Position numbers and translations under genes: made by a program
Part shown: positions 15,462 through 50,880 of the stretch, one piece after another
How positions within the stretch are numbered: the first letter of the stretch is position 1
Layout of the letters: every line of letters begins with the position of its first letter
The notes under the pieces: generated by a model
What the model saw: only the letters and a program-made list of their open reading frames with translations
Database searches by the model: none
What the model was told of the DNA's origin: nothing
Assembly (NCBI RefSeq): GCF_004010195.1
Contig: NC_057755.1
Span: forward strand, 10,394,954 to 10,458,953
Reading direction: 5' to 3'
Source of the DNA: Chiloscyllium plagiosum
Taxonomy: Eukaryota
DNA length: 64,000 nt

Positions 15462-16058
15462 CAGCAACTGTAATTATTCCAAATATTCAGGGATGATGGG
15501 TCGTGCTTCTACTCATCCTATAAGAAACGTTTGCTAATATTGAGGCACATCATTGAATGTTGAGCTGTTTCATCTCCACTCTTACTAAAATACATGATTC
15601 TGAAGGGAATAATCAGGATGAATGCTAATAAGATTAGGAGCGAGAGTGATGATAAAATTAACAAAGCGGTATGAAGTTAGGCAATAAGCATTTTTTTCTT
15701 TAAGATGATTGAATTTTCTTTCCCACAGTCAGGTGGTTCCTGTGGCATGGAATACTTTGTGGGCTTTGCTGTGTTTGTTTACCGAAATGGAAAAGTATTC
15801 AAGTATTTTGGGAAACGGTGCTTGAGAAAATAATAATATCAGCTATGGTCTTACTGAATAGTCCTCTCTTGGTCTTGAGCTGACATATAGAGAATTCCCT
15901 GCTGAGAGTCTAGTGGAATTGGAATATATTCTGACATTGTACGTGAACTGAAAGAAATTGAATTCCAAGCATCAGTAACATTTGGAAAATGCTCAGTTTA
16001 TTTGAACACCAAATAGTACAGTTCATAACATACTGTATAATTTACAGAAATCAAAAGA

Positions 16059-16155
16059 ATGGAGTCGGACATTAGCGCTTTCCTCTGGTTCATGTTTGCA
16101 GTATCATCATGCATTGCGACAGAAACAGACATTGGGATTTCCAACAATGAAAAAG
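16059..16155 (+). CDS. Candidate first coding exon A1 (exon 16048-16155): MESDISAFLWFMFAVSSCIATETDIGISNNEK, signal-peptide-like
   Basis: tttacag| acceptor, AAG|GTAAAA donor, 108 nt, phase 1, Kozak agaATGg; length, ATG position and splice sites all conserved in the paralog at 29153-29260. Confidence 0.55.
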
Positions 16156-16384
16156 GTAAAACCACACTTTTGCTGAAGATGTAGCTGAAATCTATTTCAA
16201 AGCATCCAAAAATGCAAATGTCCAAAATCATGAAGATAATTGCAAATATCTGTAATGCCTTTTTAAATGATTCTACCTTACAGCTAATTTGGCGAATGCA
16301 TTGTTTCTTCCTGGATGATTTTCTTTACAGAAGCTAACATTTCGTAGATATTTCTCACTTTCAAAATCCTTCTTTGTGTCTGTG

Positions 16385-17460
16385 GTAGCAGTGGTGGGTG
16401 GATGCGGGTGATTCCAGAACGTAGGTGAGTCCAAGCCCTAAAGTTATTGAACTCGATATTGAGTCCAGAAGGTTGCAGGGTCCCCAACCAGAAAATGAAG
16501 CATTGCTTTTCCAGCTTGTGCTGGACTTCGCTGGAGCCTGACACAGAGATATTGACCAGGTAACAGGGTGGTGCGTTGGAACGGCAGGCGGTTGGAAGTT
16601 GAAGGGTATTTTTACATGCAGAACTTAGGTGTTCTACAAAGGGCTAATCCAGTCTACGCTTCGTTTCCCTTATGTAGAGGAAAGCACATTTTGAGCAGCG
16701 AATGCAGTAGTCTCGATTCCGAGAACTGCTTCACCTCAAAAATATGTTTGGGCCCTGAGATACTGAAGAGGAAGGAGGTAAATAGTTATGTGTTGCACCT
16801 TTGGCATTTGCAGGAGAAGGTGTTGTGGAGCTTTGGATGGGTATTGGAAGTGAAGGGGGAGTGGTCTAAGGTGTCCCAGAAGGACCAGCCCTGTGGAAGG
16901 CAGACAAAGGAGGGGAGGGGGATCTGTGTCACATGGTGACATCTTGCTGGTGGTGGAAGAAATGGTGGCTGATGGTCTTCTGGATGTGGATGCTGTTAGG
17001 ATAATAGGTAAGGACAAGTGGAAGCCTGTCACTGTTGTGGGAACGACGTGGGGAGGGGGCAATGGGAGAAGTATGGGAGATGCGTCGGACCTGGTTGGGA
17101 ACACAGTCAACAACAGTGTTGGGGAATCCTCGTTTGACAATTCGGAGGCTTCCTTTTCTATGTTGTCCACATCAGAACATATGCGATGGAGATGGGGAAC
17201 TAGGAAAATGGAATAGAGACTCTACAGAAAGCAGGATGCAAGGATGCACATGTTCCTCTCCTTGTCATTTTCCCAACAGGATGCTATTAGTCCATGTACA
17301 CCTTACCCCCTTCCCCCATCTATTCTCTGCATAAAAACTGACATTTTGCTAGCTACTGTTTGTTCTGCGGATGGGTCACAAGATGTAAAATGCTAACTCT
17401 GTTCACGTATGCCGCCAAACCTGTTGGTTTTCTCCAGCAATTTCTCTTTCTCTTAAAGTT
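16385..17460 (-). mobile_element. Penelope-like element fragment
   Basis: QHKLEKQCFIFWLGTLQPSGLNIEFNNF (GIY-YIG C-terminus); inverted pseudo-LTR remnant ~17290-17450. Confidence 0.8.
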
Positions 17461-18060
17461 TGATTCCTCTTTCCTGGGGCAATCAATGTTATGCACATTC
17501 ATGGTCTAGCGGTGTTGCTGCCTTTTAATTCTATAAGCAGTGTTTGGGAATATTAAACGCATATCAGTTTAATGTTTGGAGGTTTCACCCTCAGTCTTAT
17601 TAAAAGCACATGATTCCGAAGAGAAACGACAGAATCAATAAGATGTTTAAACTCTTTAGATGTTCTGAATTTATGATAAACTCGACACTGCAGCATAAGA
17701 TTATTTTCTTCAAGACGATTGAATTTTGTTCACCAGCGGAAATTGGATCCTGTACCATGAAATATGTTCAGAGATTTGCTGTGCTTATTTATCAGACAGA
17801 AAACTAGTCAAGCAATTTGTGAAATGGAGCTTGAGGAAATAATAATGTCAGCTAATGTCTTATTGAATAGCGCTCTGTTGATCTTGACATGACAAATAGA
17901 GATATCAATGCTGACAGACCTTTGGTATTAGAATATACTGAATGTGGATATTGTGGGAGAATTAAAATAACGAGAATTCAGTGCATTAATAACATTTAGG
18001 AAATGCTCAGATGATTAATATTTGAAAACCAACAATGAAGCCATGCTCCATAATCTGAAG

Positions 18061-18165
18061 TAAACAAAATAATTAAGTGTGAAATGAGGGAATTCCTCTG
18101 GATCACGTTTGAAGCACTGTTATGAACAAAAAGAGATCTTGCCACTTCCAGTGTTGAAAAATGGA
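18061..18165 (+). pseudogene. Dead duplicate of exon A
   Basis: Aligns to A1/A2 but ATG>ATT, in-frame TGA, donor GT lost. Confidence 0.5.
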
Positions 18166-18847
18166 AAACTACTCATTTGATGAAGAATAGATGACATATT
18201 TTTCACACCATTCAATACTGCAAATATTCGAAAGCGTGAAGGTGATTGCAATGACAAGGAACACAGTTCTTATCGATGACTCTATCTTGAAGCTAATTTG
18301 ACAAACACATAATTTCATCCTGTATGCTTTTGTTTACAGAAGTTAACATTCACGTAAACATCCTCACTTCTGAAATTTTCGTTAGCGAATGCAATTCCAA
18401 AATATATGGAAGGTAAACCAGGTTGAAGTTTTCTTGAAAATATCATGTTATTTTGGGATGTAGTGTTACATTTCTGGACAAATGTGTTTAACTATGCATC
18501 ATCTTTTCCTTGCTGAAAATTTGTTTCTGCATCTCTCTGTGTGTATTTTTCTTTAGTTAGGATCTTTCAATCTCTCTATGTGTAGGGCTGTTTCCAAGAC
18601 GCCACGGATTTCTCAATATTACAGATGCAAATCCAATTCTGAAATATAAAGAAACTTCTGCCTCCCAATCGACCCATTGTTATGTATAATTGTTGCAAAG
18701 GGACTCCGAGATATTAAATCAAACCTGGAATCTGAGCTCGTTCAAGGTCTGGGATAAAATGAACAGATGAATCAGTCTGAATTAAATGTAAAAGTAAAAT
18801 AAACTAGATGGATGGCTACTGATTGAATGACGTTCTATGTTTTACAG

Positions 18848-19030
18848 GACCTGAAGCTACTGCAGGAAAGGGTGAAGTCAACATCATTTTGATGCTTGTT
18901 ATCATAGCATCTTACATACCTACAGCAATACGCTCTGAGGAACATTACTATTCAAAGCAAAAAGGACATCACAGAATTGCTTCTGAAGAAGATCCATTGC
19001 AATACCCTTTGCAAACAAATGATGTTAAAG
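18848..19030 (+). CDS. Candidate exon B1 (183 nt): GPEATAGKGEVNIILMLVIIASYIPTAIRSEEHYYSKQKGHHRIASEEDPLQYPLQTNDVK
   Basis: ttttacag| and AAG|GTACAG; phase 1-1, open, in frame with A1; paralog B2 differs by a net in-frame 12 nt. Confidence 0.5.
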
Positions 19031-19414
19031 GTACAGTGAATAAGAGAAGCATTAATTTTTTTCTCAAACTGTTTATAATCCTAAGCATCATTTCGATAAT
19101 TAACAGGAATCAAAAGATAGTCTATTTTGAGTATGCTCCTTTGCTCTTCTGTTTAACAGAATGTATCTATTTTTTCCTCTTAACAAATGAGGCACGCACT
19201 CACGTTTTACATTGAAATTTACATATAGAGGTACGTCAGCGTTGATTAGTTTTGTTGAGTGTGCAATTTCTATTCGACACTGGTGAGAAAGTAGCAGGCT
19301 ATGATATAATTTCGAAGTTGCAGTTTTGTGATTTATGCAATTCTTCAGTCTGACATTAAATTTACATGCATGTATGTCAACAAGTTCCGAAATAAGAAAT
19401 GAAATATATTTGAG

Positions 19415-20414
19415 ATTGTTTCTTTAGTTTTTTGTTCTGTTTTTATTTGTTGTAGGACATGAGCTTCACTGGCTGGCCATCATTTATTACCCACCCCTTG
19501 TTGAATTTAACAAGATGGTGGTGAGGTGCCTCCTTGCACACTGCAGTCCACCTGTTGTGGATTAACGACAATACCGTAGGGGAGGGAATTCCAGGATTCT
19601 GATCCAAAGAGAGTGCACAGGATGATGACATATGTCCAAGTCAGGATGGTCAGTGGCTTGGAAGTGAACTTGAAGTTTTTGTTGTTTCCATATATCTGTT
19701 GCTCTCATCCATTTAAATGGAAATAGTTTGCAGTTCAGAAGATATTATCTGAGGATCTTTGGTTAATTTCTATGGTGCATCTTGGAAATAGTATGTACTT
19801 CTGCTTCTGAGCATTAGTGGTGGAAGGAGTGGATGCTTATGGATGTGGTGCGAATCATGTGAGCTGCTTTGGTCTGGATGGTGTAAATTTTCTTGAGTGT
19901 TATTGGGACTGAACTCATCCAAGCAAGTGGCGAATATCTTATCACACTCCAGATTTGTGACATTTAGATGGTGGACAGGTTTTGGAGACTCAGGAGGTGA
20001 GTTACATACTGCAGTATTTCTAGCCACTAAACTATTCTTTTAGCCATTGTGTTTATGTGGTGATTTTCTGATTAGTGATAACGATCAAATATTTGATAGC
20101 AGAGGATTAAGTGATACGACACCATCGAATGTCAAAGGACAGTGTCGAGATTGACGAGATTTGTGATGGCCATAGCCTGGCATTTGTTTGGCACAAATGT
20201 CACTTGCCACCTGTTAGCCCAAGCCTGAATATTTTCCAGATCTTTTGTGCATTTGGTCATAGACTGCTTCAGTGTGTGAGAAGTTGTGAATGGTGTTGAA
20301 CATTGCACAATAATCGGCAAACAGCCCCACTTCCTACCATATTATGTAAGAAAGGGCGTGAAAAGGCAGGTGAAGTTGGTTTAGTATAGGATACTACCCT
20401 GAGATACCTTTGAG
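19415..20414 (-). mobile_element. Old CR1/L2-clade LINE 3' fragment
   Basis: DLENIQAWANRWQVTFVPNKCQAMAI; flanking TTTGAG direct repeat (19409-19414, 20409-20414); splits the 66-nt exon homolog of unit 1. Confidence 0.75.
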
Positions 20415-20785
20415 TGATGTAAATACAGATGTAAACGATATTCTGAAAGATAAGTGTCAAAATGTAAAGTGCTGAACGTGTTCTCATTACTCCCATAAAA
20501 AATACTCCAATTGGGGTACTGTTTTAAACAAGAATGAGAGTCATGGGTTACTTTCTGCAAACTGTAATGCAATTGGTGTGCAGGAATTCTAAGGCAAAAT
20601 AGAAATAATTGCTGAATTTATTGCTTACAAGTACGTCAGAAACCATTTAAACTAGAATTTTTTAAAAGTTTTATTACCTAAATCTATTTGAGATGATTAA
20701 TTTTCAATAAATGTAAGCAATGGCTGCAGGAGCATTTATAGTTTCAATTCAATCCATTTGAGTTCGCTCTTTGCTTTCTAATCAG

Positions 20786-20814
20786 AAAACGAAATCAGGA
20801 AAGAAATGCTGTAA
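20786..20814 (+). CDS. Possible terminal coding exon of unit 1 (ENEIRKEML*)
   Basis: Acceptor ctctttgctttctaatcag|, phase 1; paralogs (e.g. 32919-33001) do not conserve the reading. Confidence 0.25.
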
Positions 20815-21772
20815 GGGAAATCAAGTTCAAATGCTTAGAATGCAAAATCAGCGTAGATCCTGATGACTGGGGAAAGATACAAAAAAACAAACAGCCACAA
20901 TCTATTTAAAGGAATTATGAAAGAAAAATTGCCACTGACTTCAAAATGATAAGAAATTTTATATTTACATAAAACAAGATGAGGAGCAATCTTGTCTCAT
21001 TAGGGAATGACAGTGCGGTATTTTAATGACTATGGGGAAAGGACAGACATGTTGAACAATTCATTTCCTCATTATTTACAATTTAAAAATGCCATTTTGT
21101 GAAATATGAATTATCTTCCTCAGTTCGTCAATCACAAAGACAATGATAGGTCAAGCTATTTAGCAGCACGTGGAAGTTGTAGATATTGGTTCGCTTACAA
21201 CATTTGAAAAAACACTTGGAGATGTATATGAATAGAAAAGGTTCTGAGGTATATGAGCTGAACGCAGGTGAATGGGATTGGTTTAATTTGTGAAACGAGT
21301 TGGATCATAGCGTCTGTTTCTGTGCTGTATAATCATATGACTGTAACTGTTAATCATATGTCAGATCTGCGTAACATTTTATTTCTCCCCCTCTAACGCG
21401 ATATAAGAAACTATCAATGAGGTTCCTTCGATTTTTACATTGAATATAAATGTGATTAAAGCGTTGTTATGTTCCGACCCAGCATCAGGTCGTGAAATGT
21501 ATGTGCAGAAGATACAAGGCAAAGTGACAGGAAACATCAAATATTTATCTCAGGAATAGTAAGGGAAGGATAACCAGTAAGACATGTTTATTCCACGAAA
21601 ATACTGATTATATTTGGGTTCCATGGCAATCAGCTTTCATACACATTCTTTTTAAGTTACCTGTATAGTATTGAATGTGTGGACCAATTCAGAAAATTGG
21701 AAACAATACAGAAATGATGCGTTAGTTTATAATGAAAATTTCTGTCTGCAGGACGTGTTTCAGCCAGTTAAA

Positions 21773-24220
21773 CCATAAGACCATATGACATAGGAGCAGA
21801 ATTTAGGACATGCCACCATCGAGTTTGTTCTGCAATTCAATCATGGCTGATAGGTTTCAGAAACCCATTCTGCTGCTTTCTCCCTATAACCCTTAATCCC
21901 CTTGATCCTCGAGTACTAATCTACCTCAGTCTTAAACATACTCAATGACCTGGCCTCCACAGCCTTATGTGGCAGTGAACAGATTCCATAGATTCACCAC
22001 TGTCAGGATGAAGAAGTTTCTCTATATCTCCCTTCTACTTTCTCTATAAGGCTCTACCCTCGGCTTCTGTTCTCGGCTCTCAATGGAAAAGTCTTCCCAA
22101 CATTCACGCTGTCCAAGTCATTTAGTATTCTACAAGTTTCAATTAGATTCCTCCTCCCCATATCCTTCTAAACTCCATGGTATATAACCAAGAATCCTCA
22201 AAGGTTCCTCGTATGTCAAGCATTTCATTCCTGTGACCATTCTCGTGAAATTCTTCTAAACACAGTCCGGGTTCAGTGCATCCTTCCTCAAATATAGGGC
22301 CCAAAACTACACTCAATGGTCCAAATTTGTTCTGACCAGAGCCTTATAGAGTTTCAGAAGTACATGCTTGCTTTTATTTTCATGCCCTCCAAAATTAAAT
22401 TCCATCATTACATTTGCCTTCCTAACTACTGATTCAACATGTAAGATTACCGTGAGAGAATCTTGGACCAAAACTCCAAAGTCTCTTTGCACGTCCGACA
22501 TCTGACTTCTCCCCATTTAGAAAATGGTCCATGCTTCTATTCTACTTACAAAGTGCATGACCTCACACTTTCCCACGTTGTCCTCCATCTGCCACTTTTT
22601 TAACCTACTCTCTTGACCTGTCTGAACCCTTCTGCAAACTCTCCGCCTCTCCAATACTACCAGTTTCCCCACCCATATTTGTATCATCTGCAAAAACCCA
22701 GCCTGAATGCCGTCAGTTCCTAATCTAGATCATTAATGTATGAAGTGAAACGTTGTGGTCCCAACACTGAGCCTTGCGGAACACCGTTTGGCACTGGCTG
22801 TCATCCTCGGAACGATCCTCTTTTCCTCCACTGCCATTGTTCTACCAGACAGGAAAGCTTCTATCCAGTCTGGTACCTCGTCTCTGAACGATTGCCCTTA
22901 TCTTACTCAGTAGTCTTCGGTGTGGCACCTTGTCAAAGGCCTGCTTAAAGTACAATAGATAGCATCCATTAGTTCAACTTAGTCTTAACTGCTATTTACT
23001 TCGTCAAATAATTCTAGCACATTTCTCAGGCATGACCGCTCCTTGATGAAACCATGCTGATTTTGCCCTACTTTATCATACAATTCCAAGTTTTTAGAAA
23101 TCTCACCCTTGACAATGGATTCCAGGATCTTACCCACAACTGAAATTAGGCTGATGGGTCTGTAATTCTCCGTCTTTTGCCTCACTCCATTTTTAAACAG
23201 GGGTGCCATTTCCAGTCCTCCAAGACCCTCCCTGACTCTAGCGATTACTGAAAGGTCACCACTAACACCTCTACTATGTCTTCAGCTATATCGCTTAGAA
23301 CTCTGGTTTGTAGTCCATCTGGTCCAGCTGATTTATCCACCTTCAGGCCATCAAGTTTTTGTAACACATTCTCCATGATAATGGCCATAATACTCAGCTC
23401 TGCTCCCTCACTCTCTTCATGTTTTTGGATATTACTCATGTCTTGCATCGTGAAGACTGATGTGAAGTTATTATTCAGTTCCTCCACCGTTTCTTGTTGC
23501 TGACTACTATCTCTCCACTTTCATTATCCAGTGGTCTAATATCCGCTTTTGCTTCCCTTTTGCCCTATATGTATCTAAAGAAACTCTTACAGTCTTCTTT
23601 TGTATTATTGGTTCACTTACCCTCACGGTTAAACGTCTCCCGTCCTTTTTTGTTGCGTTCTGTTGGCCTGTATAAGCTTCACAATCCGTTTGTTTTTCGC
23701 TGCCCTTCGCCACACTACATGATTTCTCTTTTGCGTGCATGCTATCCTTGACTTTCTTAGTCAGCTATGGTTGCTTCATCCACCCTGCGCAATGTGATTT
23801 TTTTTTGCCTCAGGATGAATCTCTGCTGTGTCTCCTGGACCTCCTGCCACTGCAGTTCCAATTTCTTTCCTGCCAGGTTGCTTTCCCAGTTAATTCTGCC
23901 CAGCTCCTCCCTCATGCCTCTGTACTTGCCTTTATTTATCTGTAACACCCCTACCACTGATTCTGTTTTCTCCCTCTCAATATGCAAAGTAAATTCAATC
24001 ATATTATGGTCACTAACTTCTCAGGGTTCCTTCAACTCTAGCACCTTTATCAATTATGCCTCATTGCCCAACAATGAATCTAGTATTGCCTGTTCTGTAA
24101 GACCATAAGACGTAAGACCATAAGACATAGTAGCAGAAATGAGGCATTCAACCTGTCGATTGTGCTTCACCATTCAATCATGTTTTTGAAACCCATTCTC
24201 CCGCATTATCCAAGTAAGCT
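21773..24220 (-). mobile_element. Decayed CR1 LINE (second subfamily; CATAAGAC-type tail) plus a second tail at ~24100-24215
   Basis: ENYRPISLISVVGKILE, KVDKSAGPDGL, LLKLYKALVR remnants. Confidence 0.85.
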
Positions 24221-24221
24221 G

Positions 24222-26984
24222 GTGCCTGGTGCTATGATATTGTGGCCATAACAGAGATATGGGTTTCTCAGGGGCAGGAGTGGTTGCTGGATGTTCGAGG
24301 GTTTCGAGCATTTAAATAGAATAGGGAGGGGGGAAGGGGAGGGGGTGTAGCACTACTAATCAGAGAGGGTATCACACCTACAGAAGCTTCTATTGTCGAT
24401 GAAGATCTGCCTACCGAGTCATTATGGGTGGAAATTAGGAACAGCAAGGGGGCAGTCACCTCATTAGGGGTTTACGACAGGCCCCCCAAGAGCAACAGGG
24501 AGATTGAAGAAAGCATAGGTCGGCAGATTTTGGAAAAGTGTGGACGTAGTAGGGTTGTTGTAATGGGTGACTTTAACTTTCCCAATATTGATTGGAACAT
24601 TCTTCAAGCAGAAGATTTGAATGGAGCTGTTTTTGTAAGGTGTGTTCAGGAGGGTTTCCTAACTCAGTACGTTTACAGGCCGACGAGGAGAGAGGCCATT
24701 CTAGACTTGGTGCTCGGAAACGAGCCGGGGCAGGTATCAGATCTTCCGGTGGGAGAGCATTTTGGTGATAAGTGACCACAACTACCTCACATTCTACATA
24801 GCTATGGAGACGGAGAGGATTAGGCAAAATGGGAGGATATTTAATTGGGGAAGAGGAAACTATGATGCTGTTAGGAAGCATGGACTAAGAGCAATTGTTC
24901 CATGGTAGAGGCACTATAGACATGTGGACACAGTTCAAGGAACAGTTGTTGCGAGTGATGAATAAATATGTCCCTCTGAGACAGGCAAGAAGTGGTAAGA
25001 TAAAGGAACCTTGGATGACGAGAACGGTGGAGAGTCTCATCAAAAGGAAGAAGGTAGCTTACATAAGGTGGAGGAAGCTAGGGTCAAGCTCAGCTCTAGA
25101 GGATTACAGGCAGGCGAGGAAGGTGCTCAAAAATGGTCTGTGGAGAGCCAGGAGGCGGCATGAGAAAGGCTTGGCAAAGTGGATTATGGAGAACACAAAG
25201 GCATTTCATACTTATGTGAGGAATTAGAGAATGGTCAAAGAAAGAGCAGGGCCGAACAGGGATAGCGTAGGGAACTTGTGTCTGGAGTCTGTGGAAGTAG
25301 GGGAAGCCCTAAATGATTTTTTTGCTTCTGTCTTTACAAAGGAAATTAACTTTGTAGTGAATTAAACCTTTGAAGAGCATGCTGGACTGGATAGAGATTG
25401 AGGAAGCTGATGTACTGAACATTTTGACAAACATTAAAATTGACAAGTCGCCAGGCCCGGACCAGATTTGTTCTCGGCTGCTTTGGGAAACGAGAAATGC
25501 AATTGCTTCGCCACTTGCGAAGATCTTTTCATCTCGCTCACCACTGGAGTCGTACCTGAGGACTGGAGAGAGGCAAAGGTAGTTCCTCTCTTCAAGAAAG
25601 AAAACAGGGAATTTCCCGGCAATTACAGACCAGTAAGTCTCACGTCTGTTGTCTGCAAAGTGTTAGGAAGGATTCTAAGTGATAGGGTTTATGACCATCT
25701 GGAAGAGCATGACTTGATTAAGTGCAGTCAACACGGCTTTGTGAGGGGCAGGTCATGCCTCACAAACCTTATCGAGTTCTTTGAGGATGTGACTCGAAAC
25801 GTTGATGAGTGTCGAGCTGTAGATGTAGTGTATATGGACTTCAGGAAGGGAATTTATAAGGTTTCTCTTGGTAAGCTCATTCAGAAGGTCAGGAGGAATA
25901 GGATACAGAGGAAGTTAGCTGTCTGGATACAGAATTGGCTGGCCAACAAAAGACAGCGAGTGGTAGTAGAAGGAAAGTATCCTGCATTGCAGTTAGTGGT
26001 GAGTGGTTTTCCACATGGCGCTGTCCTTGGGCCTCTACTGTTTGTAATTTTTATTAATGATTTGGATGAAGGGATTGAAGGATGGGTCAGCAAGTTTGCA
26101 GACGACACAAAGGTTAGAGGTGTTGTTGACAGTATAGAGGGCTGTTATAGGCTGCAGCGGGAAATTTACAGGATGCAGAGATGGGCTGAGAGGTGGCAGA
26201 TGGAGTTCATCCTGGATAAATGCGACGTAATGCATTTTGGAAGGTCGAATTTGAAAGCTGAGTGCAGGATTAAGGATAGGATTCTTAGCAGTGTGGACGA
26301 ACAGAGGGATATCGATGTGCAGCTACATAGATCCCTTAAAATTGCCACCCAAGTGGATAGGTTGGTAAAAAAGCATATGGTGTTTTGGCTTTCATTAACA
26401 GGGGGATTGAGTTTAACTGTCGTGAGATCTTGTTGCAGCTCTATAAAACTTTGATTCGACCGCACTTAGAATACTGCGTCCAAGTCTGGTTGCCCTATTA
26501 TAGGAAAGATGTAGATGCTTTGGAGAGGGTTCAGAGGAGGTTTACCAGGATGCTCCCTGGACTCGAGGGCTTACCTTATGAAGAGAGGTTGACTGAGCTC
26601 GGACGTTTTTCATTGGAGAAAAGGAGGAGGAGAGGGGACCTAATTGAGGTATACAAGATAATGAGAGGCATAGATAGAGTCGATAGCCAGAGACAATTTC
26701 CCAGGGCAGAAATGGCTAACACGAGGGGTCATGGTTTTAAGCTGGTTGGAGGAAAGTATAGAAGGGATGTCAGAGGCGGGTTCTTTACACAGAGAGTTGT
26801 GAGAGCATGGAATGCGTTGCCAGCAGCAGTTGTGGAGGCAGGGTCATTGGGAACATTTAAGAGACTGCTGGGCATGCATAGGTCACAGAAATTTGAGGGT
26901 GCATACATGAGGATCAATGGTCGGCACAGCATCGTGGGCTGACGGGCCTGTTCTGTGCTATATTGTTCTATGTTCTATGTTCTA
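24222..26984 (+). mobile_element. 5'-truncated CR1 LINE ORF2 (APE + RT), frameshifted
   Basis: VVMGDFNFPNIDW, ILDLVLGN, NYRPVSLTS, FADDTK; (TTCTATG)n tail at 26965-26984. Confidence 0.95.
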
Positions 26985-27059
26985 ACCCTGGATCCTCTTG
27001 ACACTCAAGAACTCTATTTCAATCATACATATACTCAGTGACCTACCTTCCACAGCCTT

Positions 27060-28000
27060 TTTTGGAATTCAGAATAGCCGTCACAAATGTCATGTATTGC
27101 GCAACATTACATCCTAACTCATGTAAATAATTTCTGAACTCTCTCCAAGTTGGTAATATTGTTCCTACAACAGGTCGACCAGATTAAGCCTCACCAACGT
27201 CCTGTACAGTGCAAAATGACTGCCCTGTACTCAATGGTTCAGCTCCGAAGGCAAGCATGCTTCACTACCATGTCTACATGTGATACAACTTTCAATGAAC
27301 TATGTACATAAATATCAAGGCTGTCTGTTCAACAACAATCCCCAGAGCCCTACTATTAACTCTGTAACTCCTGCCAGTGTTTTTCTTACCAAAACGCAGC
27401 ACCTTGCTTTCATCTAAATAAAACTCCAACTGCCACATCCGGCTTATTTGCCCAATTGATCAAGCCCCCTTTTTAATCTAAGATTACTGTCCTCATTTTC
27501 TACTGGACCAGTGAGATTGGTGTTATCCACAAACTTACGAAACATGCTTCTGATTTTCTCATCTAAATAATTCATATAAATAACAGATTACAGTGGACCC
27601 CACACCAACATCTGCAGCACACCACTCATCACAGGCCTCCAGTCGGAAAAATACAACTCTCCCTGTTCTCTTTCATCTCCTTTGTCACATCCTCCAAAAA
27701 CTCAACCAAATTTGTGAGGCACGATTTCCTTATTCATTCCTTGCCTCACTACCTGTAGGTAAATCCTGTCTCTCAGCAACCCCTCCTTCAACTAATCCAC
27801 CACTGACATTGGACGTCAATAATCCCCTGTCTTCTCCTTTCTTTCTTAAAGGCACAACATTAGCTACCCTCCAGTCTTCCAAACCCATGGTTGTCGATGA
27901 CACAAATGTCTCTACTCTGGGTCCCACAATTTCTTCCCTAGCGCCCACAATGTCCTGGATACACATGATCGCTTTATGTCACCTTTGTCGAGATCTAACA
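27060..28000 (-). mobile_element. Old CR1 fragments
   Basis: EDWRVANVVPLRKKG (ORF 27730-27966). Confidence 0.65.
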
Positions 28001-28224
28001 TGATTTCTGAAAACATCAATCTAATAGCTTCTTAGTCCTCTACTAGGCAATGAGACCAGCCCACAGTTTTCCAATCTTTCTTTACAACTGACCTGCTTTA
28101 ACATATCTTGCAGTGTCTAATTTTTATTTGAGATTGGTTGACTTGAGATGTATCAGCAAGGGCCAATACCTGATACTCTTACACGAGACGAGTGATACTC
28201 ATGTTGAACGACTTCATTTTGGTT

Positions 28225-28919
28225 TGTTCTGGACCAGTCTAGACCACCTCAAAACATTTCAAGCAAGTAGCTCGGACCCTAAATTGGATCAATGTTTTAA
28301 GCAGGTGTATGGTGGATATTCCAGGCGTGATACAGCTGGAATACCCACTTAATTTTAAACAAACCAGAATGTATTCACAAGTATGACTCTATGATTACCG
28401 AATGAAAAACAAACAAGAGAACAGAATACAGAATAACTTAACTGATCCGAATACTCAACAGATTATCCCAACTTAATGATGCTGTACCAAATTTCTGCAA
28501 CAATCTCCATAAACACAGCCTCAGCAAAAAAAAAAAAGAAGTGAAATCAATTACAGCGTATTACAGGAGTGATAGAGATGGCAGCGATATTCAGCATGAA
28601 CATCCTATTCCATGTAGATGTTTCTTGGACCAGCTGCCTCAAAACTGACCGCCTGAGTTCAGTGATCCGCCAGACCGCTGAAACCCAAACCAAACCAGAG
28701 CAGATGTGAGCTGGAAGGACTGGCCACTCCCCTTCCATTGAGCAAGTATTTTCCTTAAACCACTTGAAAGCATTTTGTCTGAGGCTGTATCTGTTAACTG
28801 TGATTAAATTAACTTAGCAACCCTTCACACATAAAACTTACACAATTGCTGCTTTTTGCACATCGCTGAAAAAAGAGCCAAGGACAGCATAACCTTGTTA
28901 AAGGAGTAGCATTATTACA
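28225..28919. mobile_element. Solo LTR related to the Gmr1-like element LTRs
   Basis: TG...CA, flanks GGTT/GATT; start resembles 62176-62230 and 51823-51870; end (gagccaagga...) resembles 55640-55683. Confidence 0.6.
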
Positions 28920-29163
28920 GATTTATTAAAAATGTTTTGTTCCAGACAAGTAGGTTGTATCAGTGGGGTTAAAGCATAAATATTGTTTGTTGTGATTTAT
29001 CCACGATTAAGTTTGTGATGCTTCAAATTTTGTAAAACTGGCATCGTGGACAAATGAAATAACTGAAACTCAAGGCATCAGTAACATTTGGAAAATGCTC
29101 GGATGATAAACGTTTGAATAGCACCACTAATGTCATGTTCTACAATTTACAGCAATCAAGGCA

Positions 29164-29260
29164 ATGAAGTGGATAATGGGAGCTTCTCTCTACCTCACAA
29201 TCGCAGCTCTTTTATGCTTAGGAACAGAAATCGATTTTGCAACTTCAAACAATGAGAAAG
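29164..29260 (+). CDS. Candidate first coding exon A2 (exon 29153-29260): MKWIMGASLYLTIAALLCLGTEIDFATSNNEK, signal-peptide-like
   Basis: tttacag| acceptor, AAG|GTAGAT donor, 108 nt, phase 1; n-region MK plus hydrophobic core; shares C18, TE-D and SNNEK with A1. Confidence 0.55.
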
Positions 29261-29957
29261 GTAGATCACTCTTTAGATGAAGACGTATTTGAGATATTTT
29301 TCACATCATTAGCACTGGAAATATTCAAATTGCAATAACAAGGAATGCCTTTTTAGCGATGATTCTATCTTTATTCAAGATTGACAAGCACATATTTTCA
29401 TCCTGCATGTTTTTGTTTACACAAACTAACATTCACGTAAAAATTTCTCATTTTCAAAATTCTTTTTATGTAATTCAATTTTAAAATATGTGGAAAAAAA
29501 ACAGATTAAAATGTTCTTCAAAATTTCTTGCTGTTTTCAGATTTGATATTAAATGACTGTATAAATGTGTTTAACAATGCATGTTCTTTTCCTCATGGAC
29601 ATTTTTTTCTGTATGTCTACGTGTGTGTTTTCATTAGATAAAAGTTCTCGATGGTGCAAGTGTTTAAATACTGTGTCTATATGTAGGGCTATTTCTGTGA
29701 ACACAAGGGTTTCTCAACATTACGGGCATGCTTCCTACAAAGCAAGTTCTGAAATCTAAAGGAGCTTATGCTTCCCAATCCATCCATGATTATGCATAAC
29801 AATTGGAAATTGACTTTGAAGGCATTGAATAAAACCTGGAATCTGAGCTCGTTGAAGTTCCAGGCATAAGAAAAATGAATCAATCTCAATTAAATGCAAA
29901 ATTGAAATAAGCTACATGAATAACAACTGACAGAAAAATGTTCCATTTTTTATATAG

Positions 29958-30128
29958 GACAGGACGCTACTGTGGGAAAGGGTGACGTAAACATCATTTG
30001 TTTGATTATTATCATCGTAAATTTCATGCTCGTTGAGATTTGTCACTATTCAAAGCAAACACGAAATCACAGAAACTATTGTGAAGAAATGCCATTCCAA
30101 CAATCCTGGCAAAGACATGAAGCTGAAG
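29958..30128 (+). CDS. Candidate exon B2 (171 nt): GQDATVGKGDVNIICLIIIIVNFMLVEICHYSKQTRNHRNYCEEMPFQQSWQRHEAE
   Basis: ttttttatatag| and AAG|GTACAA; phase 1-1, open, in frame with A2. Confidence 0.5.
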
Positions 30129-32783: not shown

Positions 32784-35416
32784 ATCTGAGAATCTTTTTA
32801 AGATATTGTTAACTAAATCTATTGCACTGCAATGCTTAGTTTTGAATAAGCAATTAATGCAAAAACATATAGAGTTTGTAATTCAATACCTTGAGTTGAT
32901 TCTTTACTTTCTAACAAGAATATAAGAGCCCGAAAAAATGGCGAACGGGAAATCAATTTCAATTGTTCAGGCTGCAGATGCAGAAACAGCACAAATCCTG
33001 AAGTTTGGGAATAGATACAAAGATCAGCAAACAGCCAGAAATTACCTTGGAAGAGTAACTAAAATGGAATACAAAAGGGACTTGTCAGGGACATCAAAAA
33101 GACAAGAAATGTATTCCTTGCATAAAGGATGTAAAGGAGCAATAAAGGCTGAAAGTGGGGAATTTCGATGACGATTGGGAAAAGCCAGACCTATTGAATG
33201 ATTACTTTTCCTAAGTAATTACAGTCAAAAATGTCATTTTGCGAAACATTAATTACCTTCTTCCATCCTATTATCATTCAGAAAGTCAAAGGTAGGTCAA
33301 GAAATAGAGGCGAGAGCAAGTTGCAGGGTTAGGTAAAATTACGACATTTAAAATTTATTTCGAGAAGGACACAGATTGGAAATGTTCAGAGGGCTATAGG
33401 CCAAATGCAGGCGAATGGGACTGGTATAAATTGTGAACCGAGTTGAATCACAGGGTCTCGTTCTGTGTTTTATGACTTTATATTTCTAGATTATTATTAG
33501 AGGTCAGGTCTGCGGAACATTCTATTTCTACCCATCGAATGTGATATAAGAAAGTTTCAATGCGATTCCTTCATTTTAAACCTTCAGTATAAATTTCAGT
33601 GAAATTTTGTTAGGATTGGACACTGCATCAGGGCAAGAAATGTATATTCCAGTGGATAAAAGGCAACGGACAGGAAAGATCAAAGATTATCTCAGGAACA
33701 GGAAGGAATAGATAACTAAACAACGAATGTTTATTTCACTAAAATACTACATTACGTTGGGTCCCAATCCAATCACTTTTTATTTCCTTGTTTTAATGCT
33801 GTCTATAACGTGTTGAAAGTGCGGAACGGAGTGCAGAAACTTGACAACAGTACGGTAATGTCACAATCGTTGATACGGAATGAGATAGTTTTTGTCTGCA
33901 GGAATTAGTTAAGACAGTTGAGTGGAACAGTACCAAATGCAGCAGAGCCAGAAAAGTTTGAGATCCTACATTGTGGGAAGTTTTGACGGGTAGTGGAATT
34001 ATCAATAAATGACTGGATTTTGAAAGTCTTACAAGAACCGAACAATATCTGTGCAAAGGTAAAGTTACAGACGTGCTCTCGAGTTGAGGGCGTTGACGCG
34101 TGGTAGTGTGACCAGATGGTCACTACACCTCAGGGAAGGGGAGAGGTTGAGAAAGACAGCTTTACAATGGCAACCTGATCTGATGGAAGAAATTAATGGT
34201 GGCATCACTAACCGTTCACGAATCCAACTGAGCTAAGTACTTACATCACACATTCATTTGACAGATAGATGAGGTAGTGACAGTCAGGGAGAATATGTAA
34301 ACTACTAAAAGAGAAATTATTGGAAAAGTTCAGCAGATCTGGCAGGCACTGTGTAGAGAATTCAGTTAATATTTCTGGTTGAGAGACTATTGTTCAAAAG
34401 TGAAGAAAGATATGACATTGATATCTGAAACAAAGAACGAAATTAATGCAGGCTCATGTTAAAATTGTAAGAAGCACAAATACACCATTGTGTTCTATTT
34501 TCCGATTGTTCATAGTGTGGAAAAATGCGAATGCATTGGAGAGCAATATTACATGCATGTTTTGCGCGCAGAGGAATATTACACCTGCAAGCAGTTAAGA
34601 AAGACTGTATGTCCCGAGATGCTCAAATTTTAATACTGGACAATTAAATGATAACGAAATGCAGTGTGTAAAACACCATCATGGCAACAGATATTGTGGA
34701 CCAAGAAAGAAATCAAATTCCTTTGAGTGATTGAAATGCAAACGTAGAAAATAATTGAAAGATAATTGTACAAATACAAATTACTAAGTACCTTCTCAAC
34801 GATCAGAACATTTTAATTATTTTACTGAATATGGATATTTCAAAACAAAAACAAGAGTTAGCACAGAACGTTGCTTCAGAGTACAGTGTGATGAGTGTGC
34901 TCGAATCGGAAGGCAAAAGAAAAAAATAATAGTTGGCCATCTTGTTTGCAAAGCCTTCGGTAAAGAATTCAGATCATAAATTTGTAACACGTTGATAATT
35001 AGATTATTTGACATTCGATCATCAATTTTCAATATATACACACATAACTGCAAAGCATAAATAGCTTGCGGTTCAATGTCTTTGAGTTCGTTCTCCACTT
35101 TCAAACTTTCAAATTAAAAATTCAGCAAAAATGAAGTTCAGAACGGCCATCTATTCTACATGTTTGTATTATTTAAGCATGTTTTCGAAGTTTCTTGTTT
35201 CACAAATAGAATACGCCGTCCTGTGAGGGCAAGATGAAATATAATTGTGGCAGGCAGAATGCAGAATGATACACCCTCGCCTATTCACTGTTGGAAACCC
35301 GGAACAAAGTACTTCATTGAGCCTGTTGAGAATGTCATTGAGCTTTGAAGTTATAACTTTATGAGTTGTGCAGTTCTTCAGACTGAAAGCAATTTTACAA
35401 ACATCTAATTTAACGG

Positions 35417-35482
35417 GATCTGAAGTGAGCACCCAAAAATCTTGGAGTGATTTCACTGCAGGCATAAATGCTACTCCGAAAG
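35417..35482 (+). pseudogene. 66-nt exon copy c1 (GSEVSTQKSWSDFTAGINATPK), acceptor mutated
   Basis: ttaacGG instead of ttaacAG; donor AAG|GTAAAC intact; frame open; an internal CTGCAG could give a 21-nt exon 35462-35482. Confidence 0.4.
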
Positions 35483-37035
35483 GTAAACGTTAAACTATAA
35501 ATTGCTGAACATTTTCTCGACATTTCAAACAAATAGATAGCAAGTACAGCATTTTTTAACCAGAGATGACAGTCAGGACATTAATTTCTATAAAAGTGTA
35601 ATGCGATTAGAGTGCTGGAATAATAAGGTAAATAAATATAATTGCTGAACTTATTGTTTACAAGTATCTTGGAAAGCATTCAAAAGAGAAACTTTTAAGG
35701 TTTTGTTAACTTAATCGAGTGAGGTGTCATGACTATTACTGTGTAAGCGTGAACGATGAAAACAGGGACATATATAGTTTATAACTCAATTCATTTTAGT
35801 TAACTCTTCATTTTCTAAAGCGAGAATGAGAATAGGAAAGAAACTGTCGTCAGGGAAATAAACTTCAAATGATTCGTCTACATATGTAATTATCACACAC
35901 CTCCTGATGATTAGGAAAAGATTCAAAGAACATAAACAACCAGAAAGGAGCTTGTATGTGCTGCCTAAATGGAATATGAAAGGAAACGTGCCAGGGACAT
36001 CAAAACGCTAAGAAATGTTGTATTTTTAAAGCAAGATCAGGAGAAATGGTTGCTCATGAAAGGTTGAATGTGCAGCATTGTGGATGACAGCGGGGAAAGT
36101 GCAGACCCGTTGAAATTTCTTTACCCAAATATGGACATTTGGAAATATTATTTTATGAAATATTCATTATCCTCCTCCCTCTTTTTATGACTCAGGATCA
36201 CAAATATTGATCAAACTAATCAGCATCAAGAACAAGTTGTAGAATCAGGTACAATTACAACATTTAAATGATACTTGGAGAGGGACACGAATAGGAAATG
36301 TTGAGAGGGATATGGGCCAAACGCAAGCGAAAAGGACTGCTTTAATTGGTGAAATGAATTTGATCACAGGGTCTCTCTCTGTGTTGCATGATTCGATGAG
36401 CCTAGATGTGAGTCGATGGTCATTTCTGTCTCACGTTCTGTTTCTCCCCATCAAATGCGATATAAGAAAGTATCGACAAGGTAACTTCTTTTTATACACT
36501 CAATTTAAATTACAGTGATTTTTTGTTATGATTGCAACGACCATCAGGGCATGAGATATAAAGCCAAGATTATACAAGACAAAGGGACCGGAGAGATCGA
36601 AGATTATCTCAGCAGAAGGAAGGGACGGATAACAAGCAATGCATGTTTATTTCACTACAATGCCGCATTCTTTTGGTTTCGACGCCAGTCTCTTTTTATT
36701 GTCATTATTTTTAGGTTATCGATATGGATTTAAAAGTGCTGAGCGAATTCAGAAAATTGAAAACGGTACAGAAATGTCACGGCAGTTGATACTGAATGAG
36801 AAAGTTTTAGTCTGCAGCAATTGCTTGAGATAGTTAAGCAAAGACTGAATGGTTTGAAATGGTACGTTGAAGGATGTTTTGAAAGGAGGTCGAGTTATCA
36901 ATGGATGACCAGATTTTGAAAGTTTTACGGGGACCAAGCAATCTCAGTGTCAAGATCAAGTCAACACAGTCCTCCTCTAACTTGTTAAAAATCACACAAC
37001 ACCAGGTTATAGTCCAACAGGTTTACTTGGCAGCA

Positions 37036-37070
37036 CACTAGCTTTCGGAGCATCGCTCCTTCATCAGGTG
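37036..37070 (-). ncRNA. Minimal hammerhead ribozyme, intact core
   Basis: Reverse complement cac-CTGATGA-a-ggagc(gat)gctcc-GAAA-G-CTA-gtg; palindromic AGCT stem III, CUA triplet. Confidence 0.7.
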
Positions 37071-38077
37071 GTCGTGGAGGGTTAAATCCTAATAGGCAGA
37101 ATTTATAGCAAAAATTTACAGTGTGATGTAACTGAAATTATACATTGAAAAATTGATTGTCTATTAAGCCTTTCATCTGTTATAATACAGTGATAGTTTC
37201 ACTTCTTTCATGTGTAAATCACAAAATCTTTTTTTTAAAACGTTGCAGTCTGGGATTAGCTGTTAACAATGATGATAGCTAGACGATATGTTGAAGGTGT
37301 TGGCATGGAACACTGGGGAAACTGAACAAAGGCTATGACAATGGATGAATGGGGACCGCATAACAATTAACAGACAGGAGGTTAGCCTCCCAGTTGGGGA
37401 ACACTTCAGTGGTCCAGGACATTCAGCCTCGAACCTTCGGGTGACCGTACTCCAAGGTGTACTTCGGGACAGGCAGCAGAGAAAAGTGACAGAGCAGAGG
37501 CTGATAGCTAAGTTCCATACCCATAGGGAGGGCCTCAACAGGGACCTTGGTTTCTGTCACATTACACGTGACCACCATTACACTATACACACACACAGAC
37601 ACTTCTACACACACACACATACACACACACACACACTCACACACTCAGGCGCTCCTATACGCACACATATATTTTGTGGGGTGAATTTGTACTTGCAGGG
37701 TTGCATTGTACTTTGCTCAAAAACTACATGAGTTCCTGTAGAATTCTGAGCTTTAAAACTGCATGAATTCATGTAAAACTCCGTTATCTCACATTTTAGA
37801 TTAAAATCAATCTAAACGTCATGGCATAGACAGAGAACACGGGGGCCAACACCTTCAACATATTGTCTAGCTATCATCATTGTTAACAGCTAAGCTAAGA
37901 ATGCGACTTTGTTTTTAAAAAGGTTTTGGGATTTACACATGAAAGAAATCAAACTATCACGCTATTCTAACAGATGAAAGGCTGAAAGGACAATAAATTT
38001 TTCAATGTATAATTTCAGTTACACAACACTGAATTTTTGCTATAAATTCTACGTGTTAGGATTGATCCCTCCACTAC

Positions 38078-38112
38078 CACCTGATGAAGGAGCGACACTC
38101 CGAAAGCTGGTG
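38078..38112 (+). ncRNA. Hammerhead motif, probably inactive
   Basis: cac-CTGATGA-a-ggag(cgaca)ctcc-GAAA-G-CTG-gtg; G at the cleavage position violates the NUH rule. Confidence 0.55.
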
Positions 38113-39123
38113 TGCTTCCAATTAAACCTGTTGGACTACAACCTGGTGTTGTGTGATTTTTAACTTTGTACACCCCAGTTCATCACCGTCACCTACAAAT
38201 CATGCCTCCTCTAACTACTAATACTTCTCCCAGCGTGTCACCGCACCTCCGACAAGAGGATAAAGAGAGCCCCGCAATGTTAACAACGCTGGTGGAAAAA
38301 TTGAATGGTTAAACGTCTAACTGTTTATTAATCTACCTGAACTAACTGCTTACATCCCACATTTCACTTGATAGATAGGAGAGGTGGTCACCAATTCAGA
38401 TGAATTACAAGATAAAAAAAACTGTTTGAAAATCTAAGCATTTCTGGTGCATCTGTGGAGACAAATCAAAGTTAATATTTTGATTTGAGTGATCCTCACA
38501 CAGAATTGATAGAACGCATGACTTTGATATCAAAAGCAAAGAACAAAATTAGTGCAGAGCTATGTTAGAATTATAAAAAAAAAACACAGTCACAACGTTG
38601 TGTTCTATTCGACATAATGTGGAAGAATGTGACTTTATAGGATAGGGTGACTGCATGTATATTTTATAGACACCAGAATAGTATGCATAGAAAGAAAAGG
38701 ACAGCTGATATTCAGTTCAATGCTCACTGCTCTATAATCGATGAAGTTATGATAAGGAAATAGAGCGGGTGCAAAAATATCAAGACACCATATAATGGGA
38801 GAAAGTAAGTTATGATTCACCTTTAAGTGATACAAATACCCACATAAAAAAAGTATTCTAAAAGCTAAGTGTACAAATATAAATTGCTAAAAACCTTCCC
38901 AATATTCTAAAAAATTATGCTCTTTTAATGAATCTGAAAATTTTTAAACAAAAGGAAAATTTAGCACAGAAAGTTGCATAAGAACACAGTGTGATGACTG
39001 TGGTCGAATTGTAAGACAAAAGGAAAATATAATAGTTGGCATTACTGCTTGCAAATGCTTCAGGAAGGAACTGAAATCATAAATTTGTAGGAAATTGTTA
39101 ACTGGATTATTTGACATTCGATC

Positions 39124-39127
<4 letters not shown>

Positions 39128-39191
<64 letters not shown>
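39128..39191. repeat. (TA)n microsatellite
   Basis: Direct reading; paralogous to 44008-44052. Confidence 0.95.
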
Positions 39192-39195
<4 letters not shown>

Positions 39196-39534
39196 CATAA
39201 ATAATCTGCATTACAATTCATTTGAGTGATTCTCCACATTCAAACCAGAGAATGAATTCAGGAAAAATAAGGTTCAGAACGGCAACAATTTCACGTGTTG
39301 TATTACTGAAGCACGTTTTCAAACTTCTTTGCTTCACAAATAGAATGCACAGTCGTGTGAGGACAGGGTGATATACAATTGTCATAAGTAAAACGCAGAA
39401 TAATACTCCATCACCGTCGGAATAAAGTACATCATCGAGCCTGGATAGAATATGATTGATGAGTGAAGTTGTAATTTTGTAAGGTGTGTATCTTTTCAGC
39501 CACCCAGCAATGTTGCATACATTGATTTTAACAG

Positions 39535-39600
39535 CTTCCGAAGTGAGCACTCAAGCATCTTGGTGTGATTCGACTGCAGACATAAAAGATATTCCGAATG
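39535..39600 (+). CDS. Candidate 66-nt exon c2 (ASEVSTQASWCDSTADIKDIPN)
   Basis: ttttaacag| and ATG|GTGTGT; only the phase-1 frame is open. Confidence 0.45.
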
Positions 39601-40084
39601 GTGTGTGTTAAAATGCAAATTGACGATTATCTATTGGAAATTGCAAACAAATAGACTTCAATTACAGCATTAAAAAAACATAATAACAGTTAGGATATTA
39701 CTTTTTGTAAAACTATTAGTGATTAGAGTGCAGGCATTGTCATGTAAAATATTTGCTGAATTCATTGCCCCCAATAATTTCAGAAACAATTCGGCATATT
39801 AACATTTAAGGTATTGTTTATTCAATTGTTAACCAAACACATGGCTTTGGTACCTGAAGCAAAGAACAAAAGGAGTGCAGATTCATTTTACAATTGTGGA
39901 AAGCACAGATGCACCGTTGTGATCTACTTTCCTTAATGTGAAAGTATGTGACTGAAGGGAAGCATTTAGATTGTCACTCAGTTCCTTCGAGATCGTTTTA
40001 AAATTTCTTACCTGGGAGTAAGAGCAGGAAGTACAACCTTGGAAGGGAAATCAATATCAAAAGTTTGCAAAAACAACGAAGATC

Positions 40085-41980: not shown

Positions 41981-42243
41981 CACACCGACCCTTTGAAGAG
42001 CAACCCTCCCAGACCTAATCCCCTACATTTTCCCCTTCACATAACAGTATGGGCAATTAAACATAGCCAACCACCTAACCTGCACATTTGTGGACTGTGG
42101 GAGGAAACCGTAGCACCCAGATGAAACCGATGCTGACAAGGGGAGAATGTGCAAACTTCACACAGACAGTTGACTGAGGCGGAAATTGGGCCCGGGTCTC
42201 CACTGCTGTGAGGCAGCAGAGCTAACCACTGTGCCACCGTGCC
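41930..42243 (-). mobile_element. tRNA-derived SINE (HE1-like, elasmobranch)
   Basis: Reverse complement begins GGCACGGTGGCACAGTGGTTAGC (A box), degenerate B box, core TGTGTGAAGTTTGCACATTCTCCCC, CR1-like tail ending (CTAAT)n. Confidence 0.85.
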
Positions 42244-44007: not shown

Positions 44008-44013
44008 CATATA

Positions 44014-44052
<39 letters not shown>
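44008..44052. repeat. (TA)n microsatellite
   Basis: Direct reading. Confidence 0.95.
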
Positions 44053-44055
<3 letters not shown>

Positions 44056-50808: not shown

Positions 50809-50880
50809 TCAATGAGGTTACATATCATTTTACAGGGAATATAAATTTGAGTAACGCTTCAATATGGTCTGAACCAGCAT

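Follow-up and report, generated by a model that had tools for sequence, protein, structure and literature searches.

The question raised by this locus is whether two pairs of short hydrophobic exons, A1/B1 and A2/B2, lying in a 64-kb window of Chiloscyllium plagiosum DNA (the window being the whole stretch that was analysed), belong to two small genes or to one, and what kind of protein they encode. The initial annotation had read them as two separate units, each a signal-peptide exon spliced to a hydrophobic exon, and this interpretation is partly supported. We find that A1, B1, A2 and B2 are almost certainly the first coding exons of a single gene and not of two small ones, and that the window probably holds the 5' coding half of a membrane-anchored or membrane-tethered NLR-type gene, LOC122544087.

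Exon A1 (16048..16155, + strand, 108 nt) has 11 nt 5' of an ATG at 16059 and encodes a signal-peptide-like segment with a short predicted lumenal loop, while exon B1 (18848..19030, +, 183 nt) encodes the end of that loop, a predicted transmembrane helix (KD19 1.95) and a cytosolic loop. Exon A2 (29153..29260, +, 108 nt) repeats the signal-like segment internally (KD19 1.72), keeping the Met and C-x-G, and exon B2 (29958..30128, +, 171 nt) encodes a second predicted transmembrane helix (KD19 2.68) and the first part of the cytosolic tail. Each of the four is a symmetric phase-1 exon, and A1 and A2 have AG/GT ends and an open frame. As first described, the two A exons share their length and an ATG at exon position 12, the motifs listed for both pairs are conserved, and B1 and B2 differ by a net in-frame 12 nt (183 vs 171 nt), which a pairwise aligner renders as two gaps summing to 12 nt and MAFFT as a single gap. 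A third copy, A3 (18061..18162, +), is dead: ATT stands in place of its ATG, the frame contains a stop, 6 nt have been deleted and the GT donor is missing. The decay of its start codon and donor had been recognized correctly, but its frame was lost through the stop and not through a frameshift.

Amino-acid identity is 43% between A1 and A2 and 41% between B1 and B2. The paralogous introns that flank these exons contain 31 non-triplet gaps per 1303 aligned nt, so that the 279 exon nt should contain 6.6, yet the net number remaining is 0 (P about 0.001). Hence the exon frame has been conserved beyond chance. An earlier caveat, that AT-rich DNA translates into hydrophobic residues anyway, partly holds for exon A, given that the hydrophobicity of A1 is reached by 13%, and that of A2 by 6%, of open 35-codon intronic windows; it fails for exon B, where the corresponding values are 2.5% for B1 and 0.0% for B2 (n=918). 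The fast protein divergence that had been noted is reflected in a dN/dS of 0.69 for the paralogous A and B exons (bootstrap 0.40-1.21), and birth-and-death of exons is likewise supported. Because the interval spans 1, it does not demonstrate positive selection on these exons.

An assembled contig from run X3 (572 nt, depth 438; library type not on record) joins A1, B1, A2 and B2 by three GT..AG junctions, and the four exons are therefore spliced into one RNA. The A1-B1 and A2-B2 splicing that had been predicted is thus seen directly, but B1 also splices to A2, which makes the two supposed units one gene. Exon A1 was also recovered as the contig piece 16046-16153, A3 is skipped (joint 16153-18846) and the A2-B2 joint lies at 29258-29956. 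The five intronic X3 contigs listed have depths of 5-55. Four of the 16 listed runs were mapped, over region 15500-35499; run X5 gave 412 reads, mostly in repeats and with zero in the A1, A3 and B2 bins, and run X6 gave zero.

The RefSeq model likewise joins these four exons and continues into four 66-nt repeat exons, which, together with the NACHT link described below, were absent from the earlier reading. These are E2 (39535..39600, +, phase 1, motif TQA), E3 (44415..44480, +, TQT, skipped in RefSeq isoform X5), E4 (46853..46918, +, TQT) and E5 (49578..49643, +, TQT), the last coding exon found in the window; the exon after it carries IQT. A further copy, E1 (35417..35482, +), is dead, with its acceptor AG changed to GG and a TQK motif, and is absent from the RefSeq models. 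The E exons were carried by an old tandem array (32787..51834, +) built of intronic units of about 2.3 kb that are for the most part 64-76% alike; it also holds further decayed E-like copies. Rfam gave no match in the window, so a known RNA cluster does not explain the array. The eight window exons form a 274-aa stop-free frame identical to the start of XP_043539041.1 (P0001), the pre-existing RefSeq model of LOC122544087, which is named 'uncharacterized protein' and has no annotated NLR link. P0001 contains no Pfam domain (best match HAP, E 0.23, ignored), gave no usable match in the ESM Atlas and ends early in the NACHT exon. Gene models are the basis for the junctions from B2 to the E exons and from these to NACHT.

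No NACHT sequence lies within the 64-kb window, and P0001 has just the first residues of the NACHT exon; its last 37 residues are identical to the lead-in to the NACHT exon of Chiloscyllium punctatum P0007. Two C. punctatum proteins, XP_072420720.1 ('NLRP1 homolog'; P0018) and XP_072420838.1 (P0020), share the A and/or B exon, the TQT repeats and the same entry into the NACHT exon, but differ from P0001 in continuing into a full NACHT-WH-HD2. P0018 consists of one A+B module, a linker, two TQT repeats, NACHT (E 1e-27), WH and HD2, whereas P0020 has a B2 orthologue, 14 TQT-type repeats and NACHT (E 7e-29). The P0020 model is partly ab initio: it lacks A, begins within the intron that precedes B2 and includes stretches resembling introns. 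NACHT and WH exceed the Pfam cut-off in all three of the C. punctatum proteins P0018, P0019 and P0020, as does HD2 in P0019 and P0020, with P0018 just under it (32.4 vs 33.1). The window very probably holds the 5' half of an NLR-lineage gene, and the guess that an immune gene was involved is supported. In C. punctatum P0002 the A1 exon is read in a different frame, so A1-B1 may not be intact in that species.

The best PDB matches of the C. punctatum NACHT are to NLRP3 (E 9e-32), and the C. punctatum proteins have NACHT, WH, HD2, Walker A and sensor 1 in common with NLRP3 and the fish NLR-C or FISNA-type NLRs. The shark type differs in lacking PYD and CARD, in an LRR below the Pfam cut-off, in an altered Walker B and in its predicted integral membrane N-terminus. 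Pfam found no PYD, CARD or death fold in P0001 and P0018-P0020, and no LRR family at E 0.01 in P0018-P0020, models that may be 3'-incomplete; a single below-cut-off LRR_6 match on the same tail of P0007 represents a short LRR remnant. When aligned to NLRP3, P0018 keeps Walker A and sensor 1, while DGFDE of NLRP3, an instance of the Walker B pattern hhhhDGxDE, aligns to EDLNQ in P0018, P0019 and P0020. With all four Walker B positions changed, the domain probably binds ATP and hydrolyses it slowly. Single changes at Walker B positions of NLRP3 cut hydrolysis at least 4.5-fold, although the double mutant D305A/E306Q lost only 2.4-fold (PMC9633759).

The chances that a full NACHT is translated in C. 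plagiosum itself are about even. All five RefSeq isoforms of LOC122544087 end at the same residue, about 36 residues into the NACHT exon, and with that exon lying beyond the window C. plagiosum may make a NACHT-less product. It is quite conceivable, at a little below even chances, that NACHT has been lost in this species through an early nonsense change, leaving a 329-aa membrane protein with repeats only, which would be a decoy competing for LC8 or for partners, or a gene in early decay. The shared end point fits such a loss, as do the several dead exon copies, the paralogous-exon dN/dS indistinguishable from 1 and a word-limited search in which no full-length C. plagiosum relative appeared among 960 candidates of 614-2000 aa. 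Against it, the stop, outside the window, could reflect an assembly error or the allele of a single individual, the reading frame and splice sites are intact in eight exons, and X3 contains the transcript in abundance. This alternative concerns the C. plagiosum product and is compatible with an ancestral NLR build.

The TQT-type motifs are candidate sites for the dynein light chain LC8, and from their sequence we lean slightly towards LC8 binding. The tail contains five motifs, where shuffled versions average 0.33 and none of 10000 reached five; the observed count is inflated by the descent of the repeat copies from one ancestor. E3-E5 (TQT) and the next exon (IQT) carry the [T/V/I]-Q-[T/V] anchor of multivalent LC8 clients, E2 has TQA in its place, and P0020 has 14 such repeats. 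The motifs recur once per 22 residues and have D/E at -4 in three of the four in-window cases, both in agreement with the natural LC8 pattern (PMC3078936); they lack the preferred basic residue at -3 and an acidic residue at +2. There remains a sizeable though lesser chance that the repeats are a Ser/Thr-rich sequence acting simply as a spacer, a cluster of S/T-Q sites for kinases or a bait for pathogen proteases or kinases, a tripwire analogous to NLRP1. The tail is 30% Ser+Thr, exon duplication by itself multiplies any motif, the E exons drift (dN/dS near 0.9) and a zebra shark E-like exon lacks TQT. In contrast, S-T-Q is kept in all four live E exons while most other positions vary, dead E1 alone has Lys at +1, and the motif persists in the paralogue P0018, which has an A+B module just 30-42% identical to those of the window.

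For the membrane part, we propose that exon A acts as a signal for the ER, either cleaved off or kept as an anchor, while exon B provides a stop-transfer helix. Each A+B pair would then form a hairpin, with a loop of about 20 residues on the lumenal side, and bring the chain back to the cytosol. Net charge is negative before and positive after both B helices. With an odd number of segments the tail would end up on the other side of the membrane, so the two exons of a pair would have to duplicate together, and the death of the spare A3 would be explained in this way. The composition of the tail and the charge rule fit a cytosolic, disordered context; AlphaFold models of P0001 and P0018 (pLDDT 29 and 31) were too poor to use and were set aside. 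A mucin- or CD44-like extracellular stalk was also rejected, as the hydrophobic segments ahead of the repeats are even in number and the repeats lead into a NACHT. A cleaved signal peptide would have small residues at -3 and -1; by eye, C-x-A/G stands ahead of T-E, a putative cleavage site, in A1, A2 and P0018, and is missing in two of the three zebra shark exon A copies. The zebra shark model has three A+B modules in one frame that are 79-87% alike and form one group (bootstrap 100), which means that duplication or homogenisation of the pair took place independently in two lineages. This model has neither NACHT nor a TQT motif, and KD19 is under 1.2 for the first two of its A copies. Exon B homologues were found only in sharks, one further candidate (P0009, E 2.5e-4) being dropped as an apparently unrelated repetitive ENA frame. 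Exon B contains YxxQ motifs of the STAT3 type; their Tyr is missing from P0018.

In the cytosol the tail would serve as a disordered linker that gains one TQT-type site with every exon. Two chains zipped together by dimers of LC8 would form a ladder, bringing the NACHT domains together as dimers in advance and holding them at a defined distance from the membrane; changes in exon number and exon skipping would adjust the ladder. The lack of a death fold and the mere LRR remnant point to a membrane scaffold or a helper or regulator of other NLRs rather than a stand-alone inflammasome sensor. In its most complete form, a carpet-shark integral-membrane NLR with an adjustable LC8-zipped ladder and a slow NACHT, in which signal peptidase cuts at A2 to turn a polyprotein into a small membrane partner and a single-pass NLR, the model is speculative and on balance doubtful.

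The LC8 clients ASCIZ and KANK1 are not known to be NLRs or integral membrane proteins. Like the predicted linker here, they carry many TQT-type motifs in a disordered linker, and KANK1 uses LC8 to form a rod near a membrane (PMC5963919; PMC12803091). Among NACHT proteins, sea cucumber AjNLRC4 and AjNLR-new are membrane-localised and tied to the cytoskeleton (PMC13133943), but they carry Ig domains where the shark lumenal loop has about 20 residues. Published anthozoan transmembrane NLRs likewise place several helices (3-5) ahead of NACHT (PMC3879445, PMC5094078); these have a gap-junction-like profile described as anthozoan-specific, whereas the shark type has signal-like plus single-helix modules and a repeat linker. 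The Pfam search of P0001 gave no gap-junction-like match, and we found no sequence link to anthozoan NLRs.

A pore formed by clustered helices has been proposed for those gap-junction-like N-termini, and the transmembrane module of the shark protein could similarly be the effector, with NACHT oligomerisation clustering the helices. The missing death fold in P0018-P0020, the growth in module number in two lineages and the anthozoan precedent speak for this. It is nevertheless unlikely: P0018 has a single A+B pair, the Pfam matches of P0001 are no better than E 0.23, the B helices are plainly hydrophobic and a long disordered linker would presumably couple NACHT and helices poorly. The NLRP5/NLRP14 group has a lattice role in oocytes. 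A similar non-immune, structural NLR, for example in gametes, would suit an altered Walker B without a death fold, and fast evolution equally fits reproductive genes; the NACHT is nearer to NLRP3 (E 1e-31) than to NLRP14, NLRP4F and NLRP5 (E 1e-24 to 1e-19), and we regard this reading as rather improbable, slightly more so than a pore.

An NLRP-related expansion has been described in the whale shark (PMC8455134). Our literature search, in which subscription papers were thinly covered, found among the entries listed no report of LOC122544087, of any transmembrane NLR in a vertebrate or of a connection between LC8 and NLRs, although the supplements of PMC8455134 may list such architectures; a membrane anchor, a short-repeat chain and an NLR NACHT were not found described together for vertebrates. 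Vertebrate NLRs are treated as cytosolic, the published membrane-bound ones coming from anthozoans and sea cucumber, and a built-in shark anchor, if true, would depart from that, hard-wiring the membrane recruitment that NLRP3 attains by regulation. Such a protein would be a simple system for the effect of membrane tethering on NACHT assembly, and if each exon of a multivalent linker supplies one LC8 site, gene duplication and splicing would tune NLR spacing and dimerisation in a manner that is new.

Two separate small genes, with the first ending in a 102-aa protein at 20814, are hardly credible: A2 does retain its own ATG and signal-like segment, so that a transcript could start there, and 179 further joints exist beyond the 15 listed, but the B1-A2 joint has the same depth (438) as A1-B1 and A2-B2, RefSeq unites all four exons, coverage at 20723-20793 is only 6-14 and none of the 15 listed joints connects B1 to 20786. 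The open reading frame at 20786-20814 exists in the DNA, with no evidence of use as an exon. This proposed last exon (20786..20814, +) is intronic and belongs to a set of about a dozen related stretches in the repeat array that resemble acceptors, for which the Cacc profile gave 12 + strand matches with E under 1e-6.

The window is repeat-rich shark DNA in which the initial annotation described two signal-peptide-like exons, A1 (16048-16155) and A2 (29153-29260), each of 108 nt, and two hydrophobic exons, B1 (18848-19030, 183 nt) and B2 (29958-30128, 171 nt). All four were confirmed by AG/GT ends, phase 1 on both sides and open frames. However, the assignment of these exons to two separate genes did not hold. 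A 572-nt contig from sequencing run X3, at depth 438, strings A1, B1, A2 and B2 together across three GT..AG joints; B2 is absent as a listed piece and was deduced from the joint leading into it and the length of the contig. Independently of this contig, a B1/B2 profile search found RefSeq XP_043539041.1 (P0001; Chiloscyllium plagiosum, 329 aa, five isoforms), residues 1-274 of which are the exact translation of eight window exons. Hence A1-B1-A2-B2 belong to one gene, and the earlier interpretation, though not the observation, is revised. The last exon previously proposed for the first unit (20786-20814) is unsupported: no B1 joint to it occurs among the 15 joints listed (X3 has 179 more). 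Intronic X3 contigs, among those listed, have depths of 5-55, and the spliced form at depth 438 indicates that the X3 data are RNA (library type not recorded). Downstream of the A/B exons lies an array of old ~2.3-kb units in which a 66-nt phase-1 exon (E) occurs five times, with acceptor and donor intact in four of the copies.

Upstream exons are suggested by the start of the X3 contig, which coincides with the A1 acceptor; a strong GTAAGT donor in non-repeat DNA at ~7560-7670 marks a candidate upstream untranslated exon. Differences between X3 and the window are uneven (A1 6/108, B1 8/183, A2 0/108; 1/391 to 31/611 in intronic contigs across 16048-34949) and, small as these numbers are, may reflect divergent haplotypes. 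All three exonic changes listed are non-synonymous.

Paralogous A and B exon copies share 41-43% protein identity, and at the nucleotide level (63% and 70% identity) they are no more alike than the flanking introns where these align (72-76%). The dN/dS for A+B was 0.69 (bootstrap range 0.40-1.21). The introns contain 31 frameshifting gaps per 1303 aligned nt whereas the exons remain in frame (6.6 expected, P about 0.001), so the reading frame is under selection while residues drift fast. A3, an extra A copy, is dead. Since the A3-B1 intron is homologous to the A2-B2 intron, A3 was once the positional partner of B1, with A1 the surviving duplicate.

Each of the four A/B exons encodes one hydrophobic segment (KD19 hydrophobicity scores 1.42, 1.95, 1.72 and 2.68). 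The A segments are short, ending with C-x-A/G in Chiloscyllium, and net positive charge follows the B segments. Each A+B pair, or module, would provide a signal, a 20-residue lumenal loop and a stop-transfer helix; this arrangement would occur twice, leaving the tail after the second module in the cytosol. Across seven modules compared, the loop holds the best-conserved residues, a hint of a partner or processing site. Zebra shark modules form their own group with bootstrap 100, to the exclusion of both Chiloscyllium modules, so the pair was multiplied or homogenised independently. In the C. punctatum model P0018, the helix ends on its cytosolic side with three cysteines (residues 65-67), likely a palmitoylation cluster.

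The final 37 residues of XP_043539041.1 are identical to a segment of the C. punctatum model P0007 that continues into a NACHT Walker A. In RefSeq P0018, one A and one B exon are followed by a linker, two repeats and then NACHT, WH and HD2. In P0020, the B2 orthologue (a module in P0002 is 84% identical) is joined to 14 repeats, with a NACHT module behind them. Several points weigh against this NLR link. The junctions from B2 to E and from E to NACHT are known from gene models only, P0020 being partly ab initio. No NACHT sequence was found within the 64-kb window, and all five isoforms of the C. plagiosum locus end where the C. punctatum models run on. Isoforms X1 and X2 differ by a single last-exon residue, suggesting that two almost identical final exons lie past the window, each with an early stop. 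The C-terminal end of XP_043539041.1 is closer to the paralogue P0018 than to P0020, possibly through gene conversion, unequal crossover or mis-assembly.

The solved structures closest to the C. punctatum NACHT proteins are of NLRP3, and their protein-atlas neighbours are chordate NACHT proteins. Alignment to NLRP3 shows Walker A and sensor 1 intact, with Walker B reading EDLNQ where NLRP3 has DGFDE. No PYD, CARD or LRR array was found. Also against the link, the zebra shark model has three modules without NACHT or TQT. The encoded protein probably behaves as a membrane-anchored NLR; by strict definition it does not qualify as an NLR, as no LRR array was found and NACHT is at most a putative part of the C. 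plagiosum product.

There is one TQT-type motif per repeat exon, giving a tail total of 5 against 0.33 by shuffling, the exon copies not being independent. TQT anchors binding to the dynein light chain LC8, and multivalent clients form ladders (PMC5963919, PMC3078936, PMC12803091). The match to the LC8 pattern is partial, with Asp/Glu at -4 in most motifs and the basic residue at -3 missing. For NLRP3, single changes at the four Walker B positions are reported to cut hydrolysis at least 4.5-fold, whereas one double mutant loses no more than 2.4-fold; E306Q is hyperactive (PMC9633759). Together, the LC8-motif fit and these mutant data favour a product in which candidate LC8 sites in the repeats would dimerise membrane-tethered chains, and a NACHT with altered Walker B would cycle slowly as a scaffold or helper.

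Membrane-bound NLRs have been called anthozoan-specific (PMC3879445, PMC5094078), and a further report describes them in sea cucumber, carrying Ig domains (PMC13133943). An NLRP-related expansion is reported for the whale shark (PMC8455134); the two mentions of 'transmembrane' in the text of that paper refer to 7-TM receptors. The literature searched reports neither a vertebrate transmembrane NLR nor LC8 motifs in any NLR. To this the locus adds an in-frame anchor duplication, an array with one motif per exon, an altered Walker B and possible NACHT loss.

Two LINE copies, 84% alike, lie at 24227-26986, within the B1-A2 intron, and at 52608-55417; we take both to be CR1-type. A repeat with a GIY-YIG-like ORF remnant and related ends, presumably Penelope-like, is inserted after B2 (30740-32790) and occurs also at 10583-11366; X3 joints with short sides bypass most of the 30740-32790 copy. 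A decayed gag/pol on the minus strand (56800-60700) looks LTR-retrotransposon-like by eye. Decayed E-like copies occur at 19390/20406, 30500, 34700, 38820, 43690 and 46170, the last of which keeps its GT donor yet is in no gene model. Inside the array, 40074-41981 is a younger 0.95-kb tandem duplication, 86% alike.
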